Source: an uncultured Candidatus Saccharibacteria bacterium
GTDB taxonomy: Bacteria > Patescibacteriota > Minisyncoccia > Minisyncoccales > JANBVM01
Direction of reading: 5' to 3'
DNA length: 64,000 nucleotides
Assembly: GCA_964450805.1 (NCBI GenBank)
Contig: CAYVDD010000001.1
Span: 134,595 to 198,594 of the forward strand
The translations under genes were made by a program, and so were the position numbers. Shown one piece after another: positions 57,928 through 64,000 of the stretch. The notes beneath the pieces were generated by a model. The model saw only the letters and a program-made list of their open reading frames with translations, had not been told where the DNA came from and did not search any database. The number at the start of each line of letters is the position of its first letter. The stretch's first letter is position 1.

Positions 57928-60855
57928 ATGGACTCATCATTACTCAATAATTTAAATCAACAGCAGAAACAAGCGGTTATTCATGACAAAGGACCGCTTT
58001 TAATTGTAGCAGGAGCTGGGACAGGTAAAACCACAGCTATTACAAAAAGAATTGCTTATTTGATTGAGCAAAAAAAAGCTAAACCAGAAGAAATTCTAGC
58101 AGTTACTTTTACTGATAAAGCAGCTGGTGAAATGGAAGAAAGAGTGGACAGGCTGCTGCCTTATGGATATATAGATTTGTGGATATCAACTTTTCACTCT
58201 TTTTGCGAGAGAATCTTAAGAGAACATGCTTTAGATATTGGTCTGTCAACTGATTTTAAATTATTAGACCCTACAACAGCCTGGATGCTGATTAACCAGA
58301 ACTTAGAAAAGTTTAACCTTAATTATTATCGTCCCTTGGGAAACCAAACCAAGTTTATCCATGCTTTAATAAGTCATTTTTCCCGCTGTAAAGACCAGGG
58401 TATTTATCCCCAAGATTATTTAAAATATGCAGATAGTTTGAAAACTAATCTTACTGATTTAAAAGAATCCAAGGAAACAGAAAGATTAAAAGAAGTGGCT
58501 GGAGCTTATCATGTTTATCAAAGGCTGCTTTTGGAAAACAATTCTTTGGATTTTGGAGACTTGATTAATTATTGCTTAAAGCTGTTCCAGGACAGACCTC
58601 TTATTTTAGACAAATTCAGAAATAAGTTTAAATACATTCTGGTTGATGAGTTTCAGGATACTAACTGGGCTCAATATGAATTAATTAAATTATTAGCTTT
58701 GCCTGAAAATAATCTTACGGTTTGCGCTGACGATGACCAGGCAATTTATAGATGGAGAGGCGCTTCTTATAACAACATTATTCAATTTCAAAAAAACTTT
58801 CCAAAAACAAAAGAAATTTTTTTAATTGAAAATTATCGTTCAACTCAAAACATATTAGATTTATCATATAAATTCATTAAAACTAATAACCCAAATCGTC
58901 TGGAATATATCAGTAAAATAAGTAAGAAATTAAAAGCTAATAAAACAGGCGAGGGGATTATAGAGCATTTACACTTTAAAGATTTATATGAAGAAACACA
59001 GGGAGTGATTAATAAAATTGCTGACATAGTTAAAGAAAATAAAGATGTTTGTTTTGGTGATTTTGCAATCTTAGTCAGGGCTAATAATCATGCCAATGCT
59101 TTTACCAGAGCTTTAGAAAGAGCTAACTTTCCTTATCAGTTCTTAGCATCCAGAGGATTGTATTCTAAAACAGTTATTTTAAATATAATTTCTTATTTCA
59201 AGCTCTTAGATGATTACCATGAAAGTCCTGCTTTATACAGAATTCTGAATCTTCCTTTCTTAAATATTCCAACAAAAGATATTGCAAAGATCAACCAGTA
59301 TGCCAAGCGTAAAACAAAATCTTTATACGAAGCTTTAAATGAGCTTCCCCTCATACACGGTGTTTCTCCTTCATCTGGACAAGCAGTTAATTTGATATTA
59401 AGCCTGATTAAAAAACACACTGAATTATCTAAAAATAAAAATGTTTCAGAGGTTTTAGTTTCGTTTTTAAAAGATTCAGGTTATCTGAAATACTTATCAG
59501 GCAAAGAAAACAAACAGCAAATAGATTTAATCAATCAGTTTTATCAAAAAATAAAAAATTTTGAAGAAGTTAATATAGACGCTTCTCTTAAAAGCTTTAT
59601 GGAAAGTTTAAATATGGAGATTGAATCAGGTGAACAGGGTAAGATCAGTTTTGATATAGAGCAAGGTCCGGACATGATCCGGGTTATGACCATTCATTCA
59701 GCTAAAGGTCTGGAGTTTAAGTATGTGTTTTTAGTTAATCTGGTTGACAGAAGATTTCCAACTTCACAACGTAAAGAACCGATTGAAATACCAGAAAATT
59801 TAATTAAAGAAATTATTCCAGAAGGTGATGTTCATTTAGAAGAAGAAAGAAGGCTTTGTTATGTAGCAATGACCAGAGCTAAAGAAAAATTATTTTTAAC
59901 TTCTGCTGATAATTATGGCGGAGTTAGAAAGAAAAAACCTTCCAGATTTTTAATGGAAATGGGTTTTATTAAAAAGGGCGATGAACTGATTGCAAAAAAT
60001 ATAGAGTCAGTTGCTGTGAGAAAACAGAAGAAAAAAATAACTGTTCCTTTAAATTTACCCCCTTATCTTTCATTCTCGCAAATAGCAGCTTTTGGAAAAT
60101 GTCCTTTGCAGTATAAATTTGCCCATATATTGAAAATTCCAATAAGAGGCAAGGCAGTGTTTTCATTTGGAAAAGCAATCCACAACACCTTATATGATTT
60201 TGTAAGACTGACTGACAGCGGAAAGAATGCTGTTCAGTCTGCTTTATTTGGAACAGATAAACAAAAAGAACAAAAAACAGGAAAAAAAGTTTTAAACCTG
60301 TCTGATTTAGTTGAATTGTATAAAAAAAACTGGATTGATGACTGGTATGAATCAAAAAACCAGAAACAAGAGTATTACAAATTAGGCCAGAAAATAATTA
60401 AAGATTTTTATGATAAATTTATTCAAGAACAACCTAAAATCTTCAGGATTAATAAAGAGCCAGCCTTAGAAGTACAGTTCAGATTTAAGACAGCTGGCAA
60501 CACCTTATTTGGCAAAATAGACAGAATAGATGAAATTAAAGATGGAATTGAAATAATAGATTATAAGACCGGGAAATACAAAGAAAAATTATCTTCTGAA
60601 GATAAACAACAGCTTTTAATCTATCAGATGGCAGCTGAACAGGCTTTGGGTTTGAAGCCTGTAAAACTTAGTTATTATTATTTAGAACAAGGCAAAAAAA
60701 CTTCATTTTTGGGAAGCGAGCAGGATAAAGAAAATCAAAAACAAGAGATAACAGCTATAGCTAAAAAGATAAAAAACAGCAGTTTTGATGCTAATCCAGG
60801 CTGGCAATGTAAATTTTGTGATTTTCAAGATATTTGTGATTATGCTCAGAAATAA
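57928..60855 (+). CDS. UvrD/PcrA/AddA-type ATP-dependent helicase fused to a C-terminal PD-(D/E)XK (Cas4/RecB-like) nuclease domain
   Basis: AGAGTGKT, VDEFQDTN, TIHSAKGLEF and YVAMTRAK helicase motifs. The C-terminus has CPLQYKF ... IDYKTGK ... CKFCDFQDIC (iron-sulfur-type Cys). Confidence 0.85.
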   Translation: MDSSLLNNLNQQQKQAVIHDKGPLLIVAGAGTGKTTAITKRIAYLIEQKKAKPEEILAVTFTDKAAGEMEERVDRLLPYGYIDLWISTFHSFCERILREHALDIGLSTDFKLLDPTTAWMLINQNLEKFNLNYYRPLGNQTKFIHALISHFSRCKDQGIYPQDYLKYADSLKTNLTDLKESKETERLKEVAGAYHVYQRLLLENNSLDFGDLINYCLKLFQDRPLILDKFRNKFKYILVDEFQDTNWAQYELIKLLALPENNLTVCADDDQAIYRWRGASYNNIIQFQKNFPKTKEIFLIENYRSTQNILDLSYKFIKTNNPNRLEYISKISKKLKANKTGEGIIEHLHFKDLYEETQGVINKIADIVKENKDVCFGDFAILVRANNHANAFTRALERANFPYQFLASRGLYSKTVILNIISYFKLLDDYHESPALYRILNLPFLNIPTKDIAKINQYAKRKTKSLYEALNELPLIHGVSPSSGQAVNLILSLIKKHTELSKNKNVSEVLVSFLKDSGYLKYLSGKENKQQIDLINQFYQKIKNFEEVNIDASLKSFMESLNMEIESGEQGKISFDIEQGPDMIRVMTIHSAKGLEFKYVFLVNLVDRRFPTSQRKEPIEIPENLIKEIIPEGDVHLEEERRLCYVAMTRAKEKLFLTSADNYGGVRKKKPSRFLMEMGFIKKGDELIAKNIESVAVRKQKKKITVPLNLPPYLSFSQIAAFGKCPLQYKFAHILKIPIRGKAVFSFGKAIHNTLYDFVRLTDSGKNAVQSALFGTDKQKEQKTGKKVLNLSDLVELYKKNWIDDWYESKNQKQEYYKLGQKIIKDFYDKFIQEQPKIFRINKEPALEVQFRFKTAGNTLFGKIDRIDEIKDGIEIIDYKTGKYKEKLSSEDKQQLLIYQMAAEQALGLKPVKLSYYYLEQGKKTSFLGSEQDKENQKQEITAIAKKIKNSSFDANPGWQCKFCDFQDICDYAQK

Positions 60856-60904: not shown

Positions 60905-61096
60905 TTATCGTCTGAACTCTCTTCTTGGAGGTCTTCTTTTGGCATGACATTCTCTGCAGTAAATTGGTCTGTCTGCTGATGGTTCAAAAGGAAGTTCTTT
61001 TATTTCCTTTCCACAATCAGCGCATTTCCAATCTCCTTTAAACATCTGTCTTTCGCCAAAGTCTCTTTTTGGACGATCTTTAAAATCGTTAAACAT
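60905..61096 (-). CDS. Small basic zinc-ribbon protein (CxxC-x18-CxxC)
   Basis: KCADCGKEIKELPFEPSADRPIYCRECHAKRR resembles the CxxC-x17-CxxC domain family (FxP..DRPVYCR.C). Confidence 0.65.
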   Translation of the reverse strand: MFNDFKDRPKRDFGERQMFKGDWKCADCGKEIKELPFEPSADRPIYCRECHAKRRPPRREFRR

Positions 61097-61280
61097 GTAT
61101 TAAGATCACGATTTAAGCTTTAAATAAAGCCTATTCGAAACGTTTAAAATTTATAATTGAACGACCTTTCGATTACTAAGTCGTTCTATTTTAAATATTT
61201 CGACTTATAATCTAATAATAAAACAATAGCATATTGTTTTTAAAAGGTCAATAGCTCTTTGAGCAAGGGATAAATAGGTA

Positions 61281-61344
61281 TTGACAATATTTTTAACTAA
61301 GATACAATTTTCTTTGTAAGACATTAATGGGGATAGTCTCCCAT
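61281..61344 (+). promoter_or_regulatory. Promoter + conserved 5' hairpin, unit 1 (paralogue of 62409-62474)
   Basis: TTGACAATA...gaTACAATttt, then 16 nt, then the hairpin aatggggATAGTCtcccatt (61325-61344). Confidence 0.6.
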
Positions 61345-61371
61345 TCTAAATACAAATATTAGAAAACATCT

Positions 61372-61464
61372 ATGATTGCCAAAACTTTATTTCTTATTGA
61401 TGACGAGGAGGAAGAAGAAGAAAAAAAAGAGTGTGGTTGTGAAGGTGAATGTACTTGTGGATAA
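61372..61464 (+). CDS. Candidate 30-aa acidic, Cys-rich micropeptide
   Basis: My translation is MIAKTLFLIDDEEEEEEKKECGCEGECTCG. It is bracketed by its own promoter/hairpin and a terminator (61483-61509). Confidence 0.4.
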   Translation: MIAKTLFLIDDEEEEEEKKECGCEGECTCG

Positions 61465-61482
61465 TTCTCTTGTTTAATATTT

Positions 61483-61517
61483 AAAAAATCGCCCTAAGGG
61501 CGGTTTTTTGTTATAAT
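61483..61517 (+). terminator. Terminator fused to an extended -10 promoter (module family)
   Basis: aaaaaaTCGCCCtaaGGGCGGttttttGtTATAAT. Confidence 0.65.
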
Positions 61518-61544
61518 AAATACTAGAAAATTATTTTTGACTAT

Positions 61545-62366
61545 ATGCTTATGAATTCTAAAGATATTGTTATTTTAATAGCTGTTAGTGTTTTAATATT
61601 TTTTATTTATAACGAGATATTTCTTTCTGCTCCTAAGGTCTTTGACCCTCTTAATACTGCTTATATAATTGAACATGAATCATATACCTTAAGAGATGGA
61701 AAATCAGAAAAAGAAATTATCCCTGGCTCAGCAACAAAAATTAAAACAATGGCATGGGGCAAACCTGCAATAGGGGATTTAAATGCTGATGGTGCTGATG
61801 ATGCTGCTTTGGTTTTGGTTCATGACCCAGGAGGCAGTGGAACATTCTTTTATATAGCAGCTGCTTTAAGAAATCCTGAGACAGGACAAGCTGTTGGCAC
61901 AAATGCAGTGCTTTTAGGAGATAGAGTGGCACTGCAAAATATTTCTGTTTATGAAGGAAAAGTTGAATTAAATTATGCTGATAGATTTCCATGGGAACCA
62001 TTTTCTGCACAACCATCAGTTGGAAAAACAAAGATTTTAGAGATTAAGAATAATGAACTGAAAGAAATTAACAGGCCAATTTTATCACAGGCAACTGCTG
62101 ATTCTTTAATTAAAGAAGCTTGGGGAGACTGTACTTTAGATGTTTGTGAGAAATTAACAATAAATAAATTAGATGGAAAAGATGGTGTTTGGTTTATAGA
62201 AGCTATTTATGACGGATTAAAAGATGACTCAGTGCGAGCCAGGAAAAAGATTGCCAATGTTCATTATGTAAATGATGCTTGGGAATTAGGAACAACAATA
62301 ATTGATGAGCATAAATGCCAGCCAAACCGCGGACATCAGGATTTTTCTGACGAACTTTGTCTTTAA
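61545..62366 (+). CDS. Hypothetical N-terminally anchored extracytoplasmic protein
   Basis: TM helix IVILIAVSVLIFFIY and the FG-GAP/VCBS-like GDLNADGADDAALVLV. Confidence 0.5.
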   Translation: MLMNSKDIVILIAVSVLIFFIYNEIFLSAPKVFDPLNTAYIIEHESYTLRDGKSEKEIIPGSATKIKTMAWGKPAIGDLNADGADDAALVLVHDPGGSGTFFYIAAALRNPETGQAVGTNAVLLGDRVALQNISVYEGKVELNYADRFPWEPFSAQPSVGKTKILEIKNNELKEINRPILSQATADSLIKEAWGDCTLDVCEKLTINKLDGKDGVWFIEAIYDGLKDDSVRARKKIANVHYVNDAWELGTTIIDEHKCQPNRGHQDFSDELCL

Positions 62367-62408
62367 TTAATATAATTATTTTAATTGTTTTGAATTAAAG
62401 TTTTTTAC

Positions 62409-62474
62409 TTGACAATACCTGAATAATTAAGATAGAATTTTATTATAAAGGTTAAATGGGGCTAGTCTCCCATT
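62409..62474 (+). promoter_or_regulatory. Promoter + conserved 5' hairpin, unit 2
   Basis: TTGACAATA...gaTAGAATttt, then 16 nt, then the hairpin aatggggCTAGTCtcccatt (62455-62474). Confidence 0.6.
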
Positions 62475-62534
62475 GCCACCCAGAAAGGGAATTCTTATTT
62501 TCCTTTTATTTTTAAGATAAACATAAAGATTATT

Positions 62535-62696
62535 ATGACAAATACTTTTTTAATGCAAGATGAACAACCTCAGGCTCCTAAGCAAGAAACAGGGAGTGAG
62601 ACACCAGATACTGGAACTGAAGCCCCAAAACCTGAAACTGAAACTCCGAAGACTGGAAGCGAAGAAGGTAAGGAAGAAGATAAGAAGGAAGGCTGA
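62535..62696 (+). CDS. Candidate 53-aa acidic, P/T/E-rich micropeptide
   Basis: My translation is MTNTFLMQDEQPQAPKQETGSETPDTGTEAPKPETETPKTGSEEGKEEDKKEG. It ends upstream of the terminator at 62722-62745, whereas the overlapping basic ORF 62560-62754 runs through that terminator. Confidence 0.4.
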   Translation: MTNTFLMQDEQPQAPKQETGSETPDTGTEAPKPETETPKTGSEEGKEEDKKEG

Positions 62697-62721
62697 GTTG
62701 AATAAATTTAGAACCAGAAGA

Positions 62722-62745
62722 AGCGCCATAATAGGTGCTTTTTCT
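62722..62745 (+). terminator. Rho-independent terminator
   Basis: AGCGCCataataGGTGCTttttct. Confidence 0.55.
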
Positions 62746-62866
62746 AATATTTAAAATAAAGATTAAAGGTGGTTTTTGAATAGCAAACATAATCTTATAT
62801 TAACCTTTAATATTGTGCGACATTTATTGGAGAAAGGAAACCACTAGGGTAGAGAACTAGTGTTTT

Positions 62867-63895
62867 TTAGTCTTTTAACTTTTTACCACTATGAAATTTA
62901 CGGTGAATGTTTCTCAGGCGCTTACTTGTTACATGAGTATAGATTTGGGTTGAAGTAATACTTCTGTGACCTAAAAACTCTTGAATAGTTCTTAAATCAA
63001 CACCTTGGTTTAAAAGGTCAGTTGCCATGGAATGCCTAAGTGTGTGCGGAGTAGTAAAAACAGGAATTCCAGCTAAAACTGCATACTTCTTAACTAATCT
63101 CTGAATGGAACGAGAGGTGAGTCGACTATCTGATCCTTTCTTGGCTCTATAATGAATGAATAGAGCTTTTTCTTTATCTTTACGTGAATCTAAATATTTT
63201 TTAATCCAACTCAATGCTCTTTCTGAAAAATACACTGTTCTAGCAGATCCGCCTTTGCCAATAACTGAAAGTTCTAAGTCTTTCTTTTTTTTGATATTAT
63301 AGAATTGCTCTTTGTTCAAAGCAACAAGTTCTGCAATTCTCAAACCTGTTGAAAATAATGACTCTAAAATAACCTTATCTCTTAAGCCAATTCTGGTGTT
63401 ATGGTTAGGGGATTTTAAGAACTTTTCAATCTGTTCTAAGTTAAGGAATTTAATGGCTTTATCCTTTTTAGCGTCCTTGGGAAGCTTTATCTTGTCTGCA
63501 GGCAATGATTGTATGTCTTTGGCTGAAAAATAGCTTAGAAAGGCTCTGAGAGCGATAAGATAGTAGTTCTGGGTGATTTTCTTTAAGTTCTTGCCTTTAT
63601 TAGTGTTAAAGCGGGATAGGAATAAGCGATATTTCCATACATTATCAGCTGTAAATTGATGGGGTAGTAATTTTTCATTTTTTGTCTTTTTCAGCCAAAA
63701 TTCAAACTTATTTAAATATCTCTTATAATTCTCCTGGGTTTTATTAGACAAACCTTTCTCAACTTCACAATAATCTAAAAAATCAAAAATATGGCTTATT
63801 ATTGGTGTCTTTGATTTTTTCATTTTTTTAAGGATTTTAGGGAAGTGGTCTAATTTATATATACTAAACGTCGCTTTACCATCATTGTGCGACAT
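62867..63895 (-). CDS. Tyrosine recombinase / integrase (XerC/XerD-like)
   Basis: N-terminal SAM-like domain, then RDKVILESLFSTGLRIAEL (catalytic R), HTLRHSMATDLL (HxxR) and LGHRSITSTQIYTHV (H...Y). Confidence 0.88.
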   Translation of the reverse strand: MSHNDGKATFSIYKLDHFPKILKKMKKSKTPIISHIFDFLDYCEVEKGLSNKTQENYKRYLNKFEFWLKKTKNEKLLPHQFTADNVWKYRLFLSRFNTNKGKNLKKITQNYYLIALRAFLSYFSAKDIQSLPADKIKLPKDAKKDKAIKFLNLEQIEKFLKSPNHNTRIGLRDKVILESLFSTGLRIAELVALNKEQFYNIKKKKDLELSVIGKGGSARTVYFSERALSWIKKYLDSRKDKEKALFIHYRAKKGSDSRLTSRSIQRLVKKYAVLAGIPVFTTPHTLRHSMATDLLNQGVDLRTIQEFLGHRSITSTQIYTHVTSKRLRNIHRKFHSGKKLKD

Positions 63896-64000
63896 TATCT
63901 ATATATATAATAACGTGGGTAAAAAACCCACGTCAAGTGGAAAACCTATACTTCCCTATGAAATGAAGATATATCAAAAAAACAGATAAATGGTTTTACA

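Follow-up and report, generated by a model that had tools for sequence, protein, structure and literature searches.

Why should two orphan micropeptide genes of a bacterium from the Candidate Phyla Radiation (CPR, Patescibacteria), a group with tiny genomes and almost no characterised regulation, keep an invariant stem-loop in their 5' untranslated regions (UTRs) while the surroundings drifted? The question is raised by a stretch of DNA of 64,000 nucleotides (nt), hereafter the window, from contig CAYVDD010000001.1 of an uncultured Candidatus Saccharibacteria bacterium. A sequence-only reading of this window had proposed two paralogous units, each consisting of a promoter, a hairpin, an acidic micro-open reading frame (micro-ORF) and a terminator. 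We found the units to be real: promoter, hairpin, N-terminal peptide motif and terminator are common to both, and each of the two classes, named A (unit 1) and B (unit 2), has orthologues. We tentatively suggest, giving the idea a little less than an even chance, that the hairpin is an RNA element bound by a specific factor that co-regulates the two paralogous small-protein mRNAs. The earlier proposal of a shared post-transcriptional or stability element, though unproven, probably is still the best reading of the hairpin. The parts of both units and the gene between them are as follows.

61281-61510, + strand: unit 1 (class A), with promoter, hairpin, acidic micro-ORF and terminator
61281-61308, + strand: unit 1 promoter, TTGACA at 61281-61286, 16-nt spacer and TACAAT at 61303-61308; 11/12 match to the sigma-70 consensus
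61326-61345, + strand: hairpin 1 of unit 1, AATGGGG-ATAGTC-TCCCATT; 7 base pairs (bp) including a closing G.U, 6-nt loop
61372-61464, + strand: class A micro-ORF, 30 amino acids (aa), MIAKTLFLIDDEEEEEEKKECGCEGECTCG
61482-61510, + strand: intrinsic terminator of unit 1, core CGCCC-TAA-GGGCG followed by a T-run; -15.5 kcal/mol, z -4.4
61551-62366, + strand: intervening gene of 271 aa with an N-terminal hydrophobic anchor and no Pfam family, outside both units
62409-62745, + strand: unit 2 (class B), with promoter, hairpin, acidic micro-ORF and terminator
62409-62438, + strand: unit 2 promoter, TTGACA at 62409-62414, 18-nt spacer and TAGAAT at 62433-62438; 11/12 match to the sigma-70 consensus
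62450-62477, + strand: hairpin 1 of unit 2, core AATGGGG-CTAGTC-TCCCATT at 62455-62474, outer helix of GGT (62450-62452) with GCC (62475-62477)
62483-62513, + strand: hairpin 2 of the class B leader, GAAAGGGAA/UUUUCCUUUU followed by AUUUUU; weak, terminator-like
62535-62696, + strand: class B micro-ORF, 53 aa, MTNTFLMQDEQPQAPKQETGSETPDTGTEAPKPETETPKTGSEEGKEEDKKEG; annotated as a gene in public assemblies
62716-62745, + strand: intrinsic terminator of unit 2, GAAGAAGCGCC-ATAATA-GGTGCTTTTTC; -22.4 kcal/mol, z -5.8

Most of this anatomy had been recognised before. The near-consensus promoters, the small acidic ORFs and the intrinsic terminators all stood, and the hairpin of unit 2 had been placed exactly; that of unit 1 starts at 61326 instead of 61325. 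An identical 16-nt distance between the -10 box and the hairpin was not borne out, as the 16 nt hold for unit 2 only; unit 1 has 17 nt, and the range among relatives is 15-22 nt. The second, weaker hairpin with its U-run in the leader of unit 2 had been absent from the earlier list of parts. The two hairpins 1, each with a 7-bp stem and a 6-nt loop, have calculated fold energies of -6.8 kcal/mol (unit 1) and -6.5 kcal/mol (unit 2), and the distance from hairpin to ATG is 26 nt in class A and about 60 nt in class B.

A hairpin tied to two classes of micro-ORF

The 64-kb window contains exactly two copies of the 20-mer AATGGGGNTAGTCTCCCATT, located on the + strand at 61326-61345 and 62455-62474. 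No further copy is present there at up to 3 mismatches, and 100 shuffles with 3 mismatches allowed yielded 0 matches. Between the two units, 19 of the 20 positions are identical, while the flanks (from the -10 box to the hairpin and from the hairpin to the ATG) have diverged. Employing a covariance model built from relatives, a check that the sequence-only reading had recommended, we obtained 46.4 bits for the hairpin of unit 2 and 40.7 bits for that of unit 1; the next match in the window reached 11.6 bits, so that the model singled out these two hairpins only, and relatives carry the hairpin as well.

The relatives' loci were gathered via homologues of the 271-aa protein, which belong to Patescibacteria/Candidatus Nealsonbacteria, via a match to the class B peptide, and from exact-pattern scans of one genome per species and of Joint Genome Institute (JGI) metagenomes. 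In this way, 23 distinct promoter-plus-hairpin sequences were recovered, including those of the complete Nealsonbacteria genomes CP179889.1 and CP179890.1. All genuine hairpins share one setting among the recovered relatives: the promoter TTGACA-N16-18-TAnnnT (mostly TAnAAT) precedes them, and the gene that follows is invariably a class A or class B ORF and never one of another type. Chance matches to the pattern came from unrelated, often GC-rich genomes, had neither the promoter nor the peptide and were readily told from the genuine ones. In two distant genomes, L056 and L060, in which the 271-aa neighbour shows identities of 62% and 55%, respectively, no hairpin was found within 10 kb on either side of its homologue. 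A search of Rfam 15 with the region 61250-62780 gave no match at the gathering threshold and, at E<=10, only terminator-driven chance matches far below the cutoffs; the hairpin is hence not a known Rfam motif, and a literature search found nothing on the element either. Judged from this sequence survey, the hairpin is a previously undescribed cis-element of narrow distribution, and the hairpin/micropeptide family appears to be confined to a sub-clade of Candidatus Nealsonbacteria (Patescibacteria/CPR), which makes the general impact of the observation a moderate one.

The other parts of the units are kept as well. In class A, the promoter hexamers and their 16-nt spacer are retained at 7/7 distinct loci; the class B promoter, which in the window is preceded by a T-run at 62401-62406, is kept in 16 distinct loci. 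Terminators of class A orthologues retain a GC hairpin and a T-run with differing stem sequences, and those of class B orthologues have covarying GC stems and a T-run. Folding of the whole transcripts of both units brought out hairpin 1, hairpin 2 and the terminators and no additional structure.

Hairpin 2 of the class B leader comprises 8 pairs, one of which is GC in 8, AU in 2 and AC in 4 cases, and it was not called by the terminator scan. In locus L043 (2981-3053), a class B unit has lost hairpin 2 through a 32-nt deletion, and hairpin 1 is directly followed by UAUUUUU. This loss points to hairpin 2 being dispensable; the L043 contig ends soon after the deletion, so that an assembly artefact may be its cause. 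We also considered an antiterminator switch between hairpins 1 and 2 of class B and rejected it, since the pairing of UCUCCC in the 3' arm of hairpin 1 with GGGA of hairpin 2 is possible in some sequences and not in L004, and hairpin 2 is deleted in L043.

Might the two copies instead be core sites of a recombinase? They are direct repeats with 7-bp inverted arms around an asymmetric 6-bp spacer, and an Xer-like tyrosine recombinase is encoded 120 nt downstream, an arrangement in which the 271-aa gene would be an excisable cassette. We consider this scarcely credible. The hairpin is always locked to promoter and micro-ORF, single class B hairpin units without a nearby recombinase exist in L002, L004 and L055, and the recombinase gene is flanked by a 13-mer repeat of its own, ATTGTGCGACATT. 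The enzyme, which the sequence-only reading had listed alongside the units, is thus an incidental neighbour.

Micro-ORFs and their coding signature

Class A peptides are 22-35 aa long and combine the N-terminus MI[AT]K[TI]LFLI[DE]DE, a motif kept in 7 loci, with a variable E/K/G-rich tail; their ORF usually lies just upstream of the 271-aa gene. In class B (26-73 aa), 1-5 variable residues precede [FILY]-L-M-Q-[DE]-E, often followed by xKxPEQETG, and a body of (P)ETGTE- or TEGTEEK-type repeats. The LMQ[DE]E motif does not vary among 14 class B loci, and most copies end in EGG[TAV][EQ], with KKEG in the window copy and K in two others. An anchored comparison was used for the two window units, the predicted products of which contain the stretches MIAKTLFLIDDE... 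and ...FLMQDE....

Variation within the first 13 codons of class A is concentrated at third codon positions, which account for 7 of 9 variable columns (binomial p about 0.008 by our own calculation), the changes being GCC/GCA, ATT/ATA, TTA/TTG, GAG/GAA and GAC/GAT. In class B, the invariant ATG-CAA is preceded by either TTA or CTA, both of which encode Leu, and the next codon upstream stands for F, L, I or Y. The first ATG of class B lies 2-6 codons upstream, depending on the lineage, and is in frame every time; the frame is open at 14/14 loci, with its stop about 15-25 nt ahead of the terminator. Taken together, the third-position bias, the in-frame ATGs, the synonymous Leu codons and the C-terminal EGG[TAV][EQ] indicate small-protein genes rather than small RNAs (sRNAs). 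Both units thus appear to be paralogous, independently transcribed monocistronic small-protein genes, the peptides of which look translated.

The sequence-only reading had stated that a conserved hairpin accompanied by unconserved ORFs would speak for sRNAs; in the related genomes, both ORF classes are conserved together with the hairpin. Non-coding sRNAs with purine-rich bodies that are open merely by composition, and from which no peptide is made, nevertheless deserve consideration. The purine-rich body of class B leaves its +1 frame stop-free at 13/14 loci as well, the acidic tails are near-neutral with counts of 52:46:62 over the three codon positions, and the class B leader, with its two hairpins and U-run, resembles an sRNA in shape when taken by itself. 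Moreover, the family is small, an exhaustive search of 1.84 billion representatives with a class B hidden Markov model having found only 4 proteins. Word-index searches based on class B profiles brought up just 3 and 4 matches, and Pfam-A and NCBIfam contain zero families matching the two window peptides (NCBIfam also zero for two orthologues). An sRNA, however, would explain neither the third-position bias of class A nor, in class B, the synonymous TTA/CTA exchange and the conservative F/L/I/Y exchanges before the invariant MQ. It would also leave open why differently placed upstream ATGs are all in frame and why the C-terminal EGG[TAV][EQ] adjoins the stop, when the +1 frame has no conserved start. 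We therefore regard sRNAs as improbable and prefer small-protein genes. The basic product of the +1 frame (MTKRKKK... in class A, RRNRR... in class B) was likewise rejected, as this frame is open only through purine richness and its ATG, which arises from GAT-GAx codons, shifts its position in L037.

From the near-equal codon-position counts in the tails it follows that only the termini carry clear protein-level constraint. Sequence comparison suggests that the class B tail is constrained in composition and changes its length by in-frame repeat slippage. Among near-identical relatives (L027, L041, L042, L055 and protein P0125), the number of tail repeats varies fast, giving products of 26, 42, 51, 52 and 57 aa; the window ORF (62535-62696) encodes 53 aa compared to 69-73 aa in L006. 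As a further observation, class A units carry a conserved pyrimidine motif in their 3' UTR, TCCTCTTRA (TTCTCTTGT in the window, 61465-61475), located at or just past the stop and also present in L006, L008, L009, L036 and L043. It is complementary to the AAGAGGA opening the acidic run, and in some orthologues the ORF reads through it (…EEQSS*). As gene callers mostly miss these peptides, our results support counting very small low-complexity ORFs as real genes.

The class A copy in the window ends in CGCEGECTCG, in which the sequence-only reading had seen a metal-binding core or one resembling the precursor of a ribosomally synthesised and post-translationally modified peptide (RiPP). This did not survive the comparison with orthologues: the CGCxGxCxCG cluster is unique to this genome, and Cys is found in 0/6 other distinct class A orthologues, the tails of which are E/K/G-rich. 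Neither Pfam nor NCBIfam gave a match, and the neighbourhood encodes no transporter and, as had been noted before, no modifying enzyme. That class A is a metal-binding peptide or a RiPP precursor is hardly conceivable.

RNA element or DNA site

Is the common hairpin read as RNA or as DNA? Four kinds of stem change were observed among the relatives: C15T (in class A and at least two class B lineages), G7A (in at least two lineages), A18G, and A1G, a variant that came from the covariance model and lies outside the scan pattern. In the outer helix of class B, U.G is changed to C-G in 4 sequences. All stem substitutions keep the pairing of the + strand through G.U or A-U and none makes A.C, while three of the four kinds would be mismatched on the opposite strand, where G.U reads A.C, or in a DNA palindrome. 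Paired cells amount to 97.6%, compared to 52-69% with the partners slid. The class B stem extension GGY/GCC appears to be replaced in L031 by GUU/GAC, a change that would be compensatory; the position is gapped in the MAFFT alignment. The loop is not palindromic; its TAGTC is invariant over the 23 distinct sequences and only loop position 1 is free (A/C/T). Maintained sense-strand pairing and an invariant, asymmetric loop together favour a sense-strand RNA element that is read sequence-specifically. A pseudoknot between the UAGUC loop and the start codon, via G[AG][CU]U[AG], was rejected. It can be drawn for 5/5 distinct class A sequences, where the partner consists of conserved Met-Ile codons, but only for 5/12 distinct class B sequences compared to 10/47 ordinary ORFs, which is no enrichment over ordinary genes.

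Several points weigh against the RNA element. Covariation is not significant, as 77/500 shuffles reach the observed score, and double changes are found at one pair only, in hairpin 2, among sequences of close relatives. The pattern used to scan genomes and metagenomes admitted only wobble-compatible variants, which leaves about 5 substitutions from unbiased sampling. The element is at the same time a 7-6-7 DNA palindrome at about +10 to +30, the classical position of a repressor site, and a hairpin with a purely protective role at the 5' end typically has a shorter single-stranded tail before it than the 8-15 nt predicted here. On the coding side of the explanation, the stop-free +1 frame and the near-neutral tails mentioned above call for caution. 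Transcription start, transcript, peptide and binding factor are, moreover, predictions from sequence.

The chief rival is a DNA operator: a dimeric factor bound to the 20-mer just past the start site (as a 7-6-7 site or a CRP-like 5-6-5 site, TGGGR-N6-YCCCA) would repress both promoters by roadblock. The inverted repeat follows the -10 box at the distance of 15-22 nt given above, and the G7A variant even makes the palindrome perfect. A dimer site would, however, not be expected to have an invariant, asymmetric TAGTC spacer, and C15T, A18G and A1G break the palindrome and keep RNA pairing by G.U. The promoter-to-hairpin distance differs by up to 7 bp among loci, which corresponds to about two-thirds of a helical turn, and this variability fits a module of the transcript slightly better than a phased operator. 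In addition, no regulator gene is consistently adjacent in the loci examined. Due to the non-significant covariation and the wobble-limited scans, an operator stays a live rival, albeit an unlikely one.

A second rival dispenses with a specific factor. The hairpin might be a generic 5' stabiliser of two highly expressed mRNAs, identical in both because of a recent duplication, which would fit a stable small hairpin near the predicted 5' end, strong promoters and a young, narrow family. Known 5'-terminal stabilisers (the ompA 5' UTR, the Bacillus subtilis aprE and ermC leaders) act by position and stability and not by loop sequence, and our element shares with them small size, stability and a place near the 5' end of a predicted, strongly transcribed monocistronic mRNA. 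A stabiliser needs no particular loop, though, and here the loop does not vary across the family. The 20-mer is still nearly identical between units in which the rest of the leader and the proteins have diverged. The predicted tail of 8-15 nt exceeds the few nt tolerated by classical stabilisers and would still let 5'-end-dependent RNases load. We thus hold a generic stabiliser to be rather unlikely.

How might an RNA element bound by a specific factor work? A near-consensus sigma-70 promoter would drive each small-protein gene, and a strong intrinsic terminator would end it. We infer a transcription start about 7 nt after the -10 box, which would place the hairpin about 8-15 nt into the mRNA; predicted from the -10 box, the core hairpin would begin at about +9 to +16 and the outer helix of class B about 5 nt earlier. 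The sense-strand hairpin with its UAGUC loop would be recognised in trans by a sequence-specific factor, most probably a protein, through which translation and/or mRNA lifetime would be set in parallel for both messages. In the encoded protein, a hydrophobic-then-acidic N-terminal motif (LFLI[DE]DE or [FILY]LMQ[DE]E) would be followed by a low-complexity tail that is highly acidic and evolves fast. Such a composition suggests a short docking motif joined to a polyanionic tail that could be nucleic-acid-mimicking or entropic. If the RNA reading is right, the 20-nt hairpin may serve as a tractable bait for finding an RNA-binding regulator in CPR bacteria.

The nearest analogue may be the cold box of the cspA paralogues. 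The cold box, known from work of the Inouye lab, is a 5'-UTR element common to Escherichia coli cspA, cspB, cspG and cspI that mediates their common (auto)regulation and message stability. There, too, paralogous small-protein genes have unusually long 5' UTRs, of which the best-kept segment is a short stem-loop box near the transcription start. In contrast, the predicted proteins here are acidic and disordered and lack a cold-shock domain, the box sequence differs, and the genome does without initiation that depends on Shine-Dalgarno (SD) motifs. Protein-binding operators on RNA, such as the MS2/Qbeta coat-protein hairpin and those of ribosomal proteins and CsrA, resemble our element in having a short stem and a sequence-specific loop upstream of the start that is kept above its surroundings. 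However, the hairpin-to-ATG distances in both classes mean that it does not occlude the start codon, and it contains no GGA motif.

A more far-reaching variant gives the peptides a part in the regulation: acidic, disordered peptides, as nucleic-acid mimics or as Pup-like Glu/Gln tags, might titrate a basic RNA-binding protein that binds the UAGUC hairpin on both mRNAs. If true, this would close a partner-switch feedback loop akin to FliW-CsrA-flagellin and constitute a new, CPR-specific trio of hairpin, protein and micropeptide. Like Pup and UBact, class B peptides are about 50-70 aa long, acidic and predicted to be disordered, and most end in G-G-x-E/Q with E and Q alternating between close relatives. 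Unlike them, they have GG-x-[EQ] instead of GG-[EQ], the deviating C-termini of the window copy and two others do not fit, and there is no Pfam Pup match. At present we regard titration as quite improbable.

Genome context of the two units

The leaders of the two units stand in a genome with a different initiation style. The sequence-only reading had pointed out that neither micro-ORF has an SD, which is correct for both; it is no special feature of the two micro-ORFs, since an SD-like motif precedes only 3/47 long ORFs in the window. A TAnAAT box ending 4-10 nt before the ATG is found at 7/47 long ORFs (about 15%), compared to 2.3% at random positions, and by this measure about 15% of the window genes would be leaderless. 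Against this leaderless, SD-less style, the structured leaders of 57 nt and 90 nt in the two units are exceptional. Several terminators are directly followed by a TGnTAnAAT box and a leaderless ATG, and terminator T-runs often double as the upstream part of the extended -10 (TGnTAnAAT) of the next gene.

Besides the 271-aa anchored protein, the neighbourhood of the units encodes a helicase, a zinc-ribbon protein and the Xer-like recombinase. The 271-aa gene has its own TGnTATAAT -10 box at 61510-61518; in several relatives, a TGGTACAAT -10 box abuts the class A terminator, and the ATG of the 271-aa gene follows after 6 nt. This gene also gives rise to another reading of unit 1, in which a leader-peptide attenuator with a run of Asp/Glu codons would sense charged tRNA and control the 271-aa gene. 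The order of promoter, very short ORF with a homopolymeric (D/E) codon run, terminator and gene indeed recalls trpL, hisL and pheL, and synteny between the class A unit and the 271-aa gene holds at 7 loci. Yet the whole-transcript fold contains no antiterminator or other alternative pairing that competes with the terminator (z only -1.05), and the gene has its own promoter, the extended -10 box abutting the terminator. As this terminator-then-gene layout is ordinary throughout the genome, it is no sign of an attenuator behind class A. The paralogous unit 2 has the same architecture without a same-direction gene downstream, being followed by a convergent one, and relatives exist that carry the 271-aa gene without a class A unit. 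An attenuator is accordingly very improbable, and we retain unit 1 as a small-protein gene of its own.

The zinc-ribbon protein (60905-61096, - strand, 63 aa, CxxC-x17-CxxC, PF23477 / TIGR04272) has basic tails and is a candidate small nucleic-acid-binding protein. In those related loci for which a gene table was consulted, it likewise occurs near the helicase and the class A unit. The helicase ORF (57928-60855, 975 aa, UvrD/AddB-like) contains an Rfam match at 59812-59913 (+ strand) to n00280 ('C. difficile sRNA included into helicase gene'), which at 71.4 bits exceeds the gathering score and most likely reflects conserved coding sequence, not an sRNA. The helicase orthologue in L004 (1461-5516) has 1351 aa and includes Hint/intein-splicing domains, while the window copy is intein-free.

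On either side of the Xer-like recombinase gene stands an exact copy of the 13-mer ATTGTGCGACATT, at 62812-62824 and 63884-63896 in direct orientation; the second copy coincides with the first codons of the recombinase (MSHN). A third, inverted copy lies about 1 kb further on (8074-8086 in L001, corresponding to window coordinate 64922-64934, past the window end). The trio of two direct copies and one inverted copy recurs in L009 and L045, and copies near recombinases are also found in L056 and L058; the repeats could mark an invertible or cassette-like segment. Copies outside the recombinase gene sit in a repeated element of about 65 nt, present at 62808-62865 (+ strand), in L001 at 8090-8026 (- strand) and in L009, L045, L056 and L058, for which no Rfam match was obtained. 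This element comprises a 17-nt box, TWATATTGTGCGACRTT, a purine-rich linker, a hairpin with the conserved loop GRGTAGRGAA and a T-run. Its hairpin stems covary, with double changes at 4 pairs, and the element could be a small RNA, a terminator module or a recombination site.

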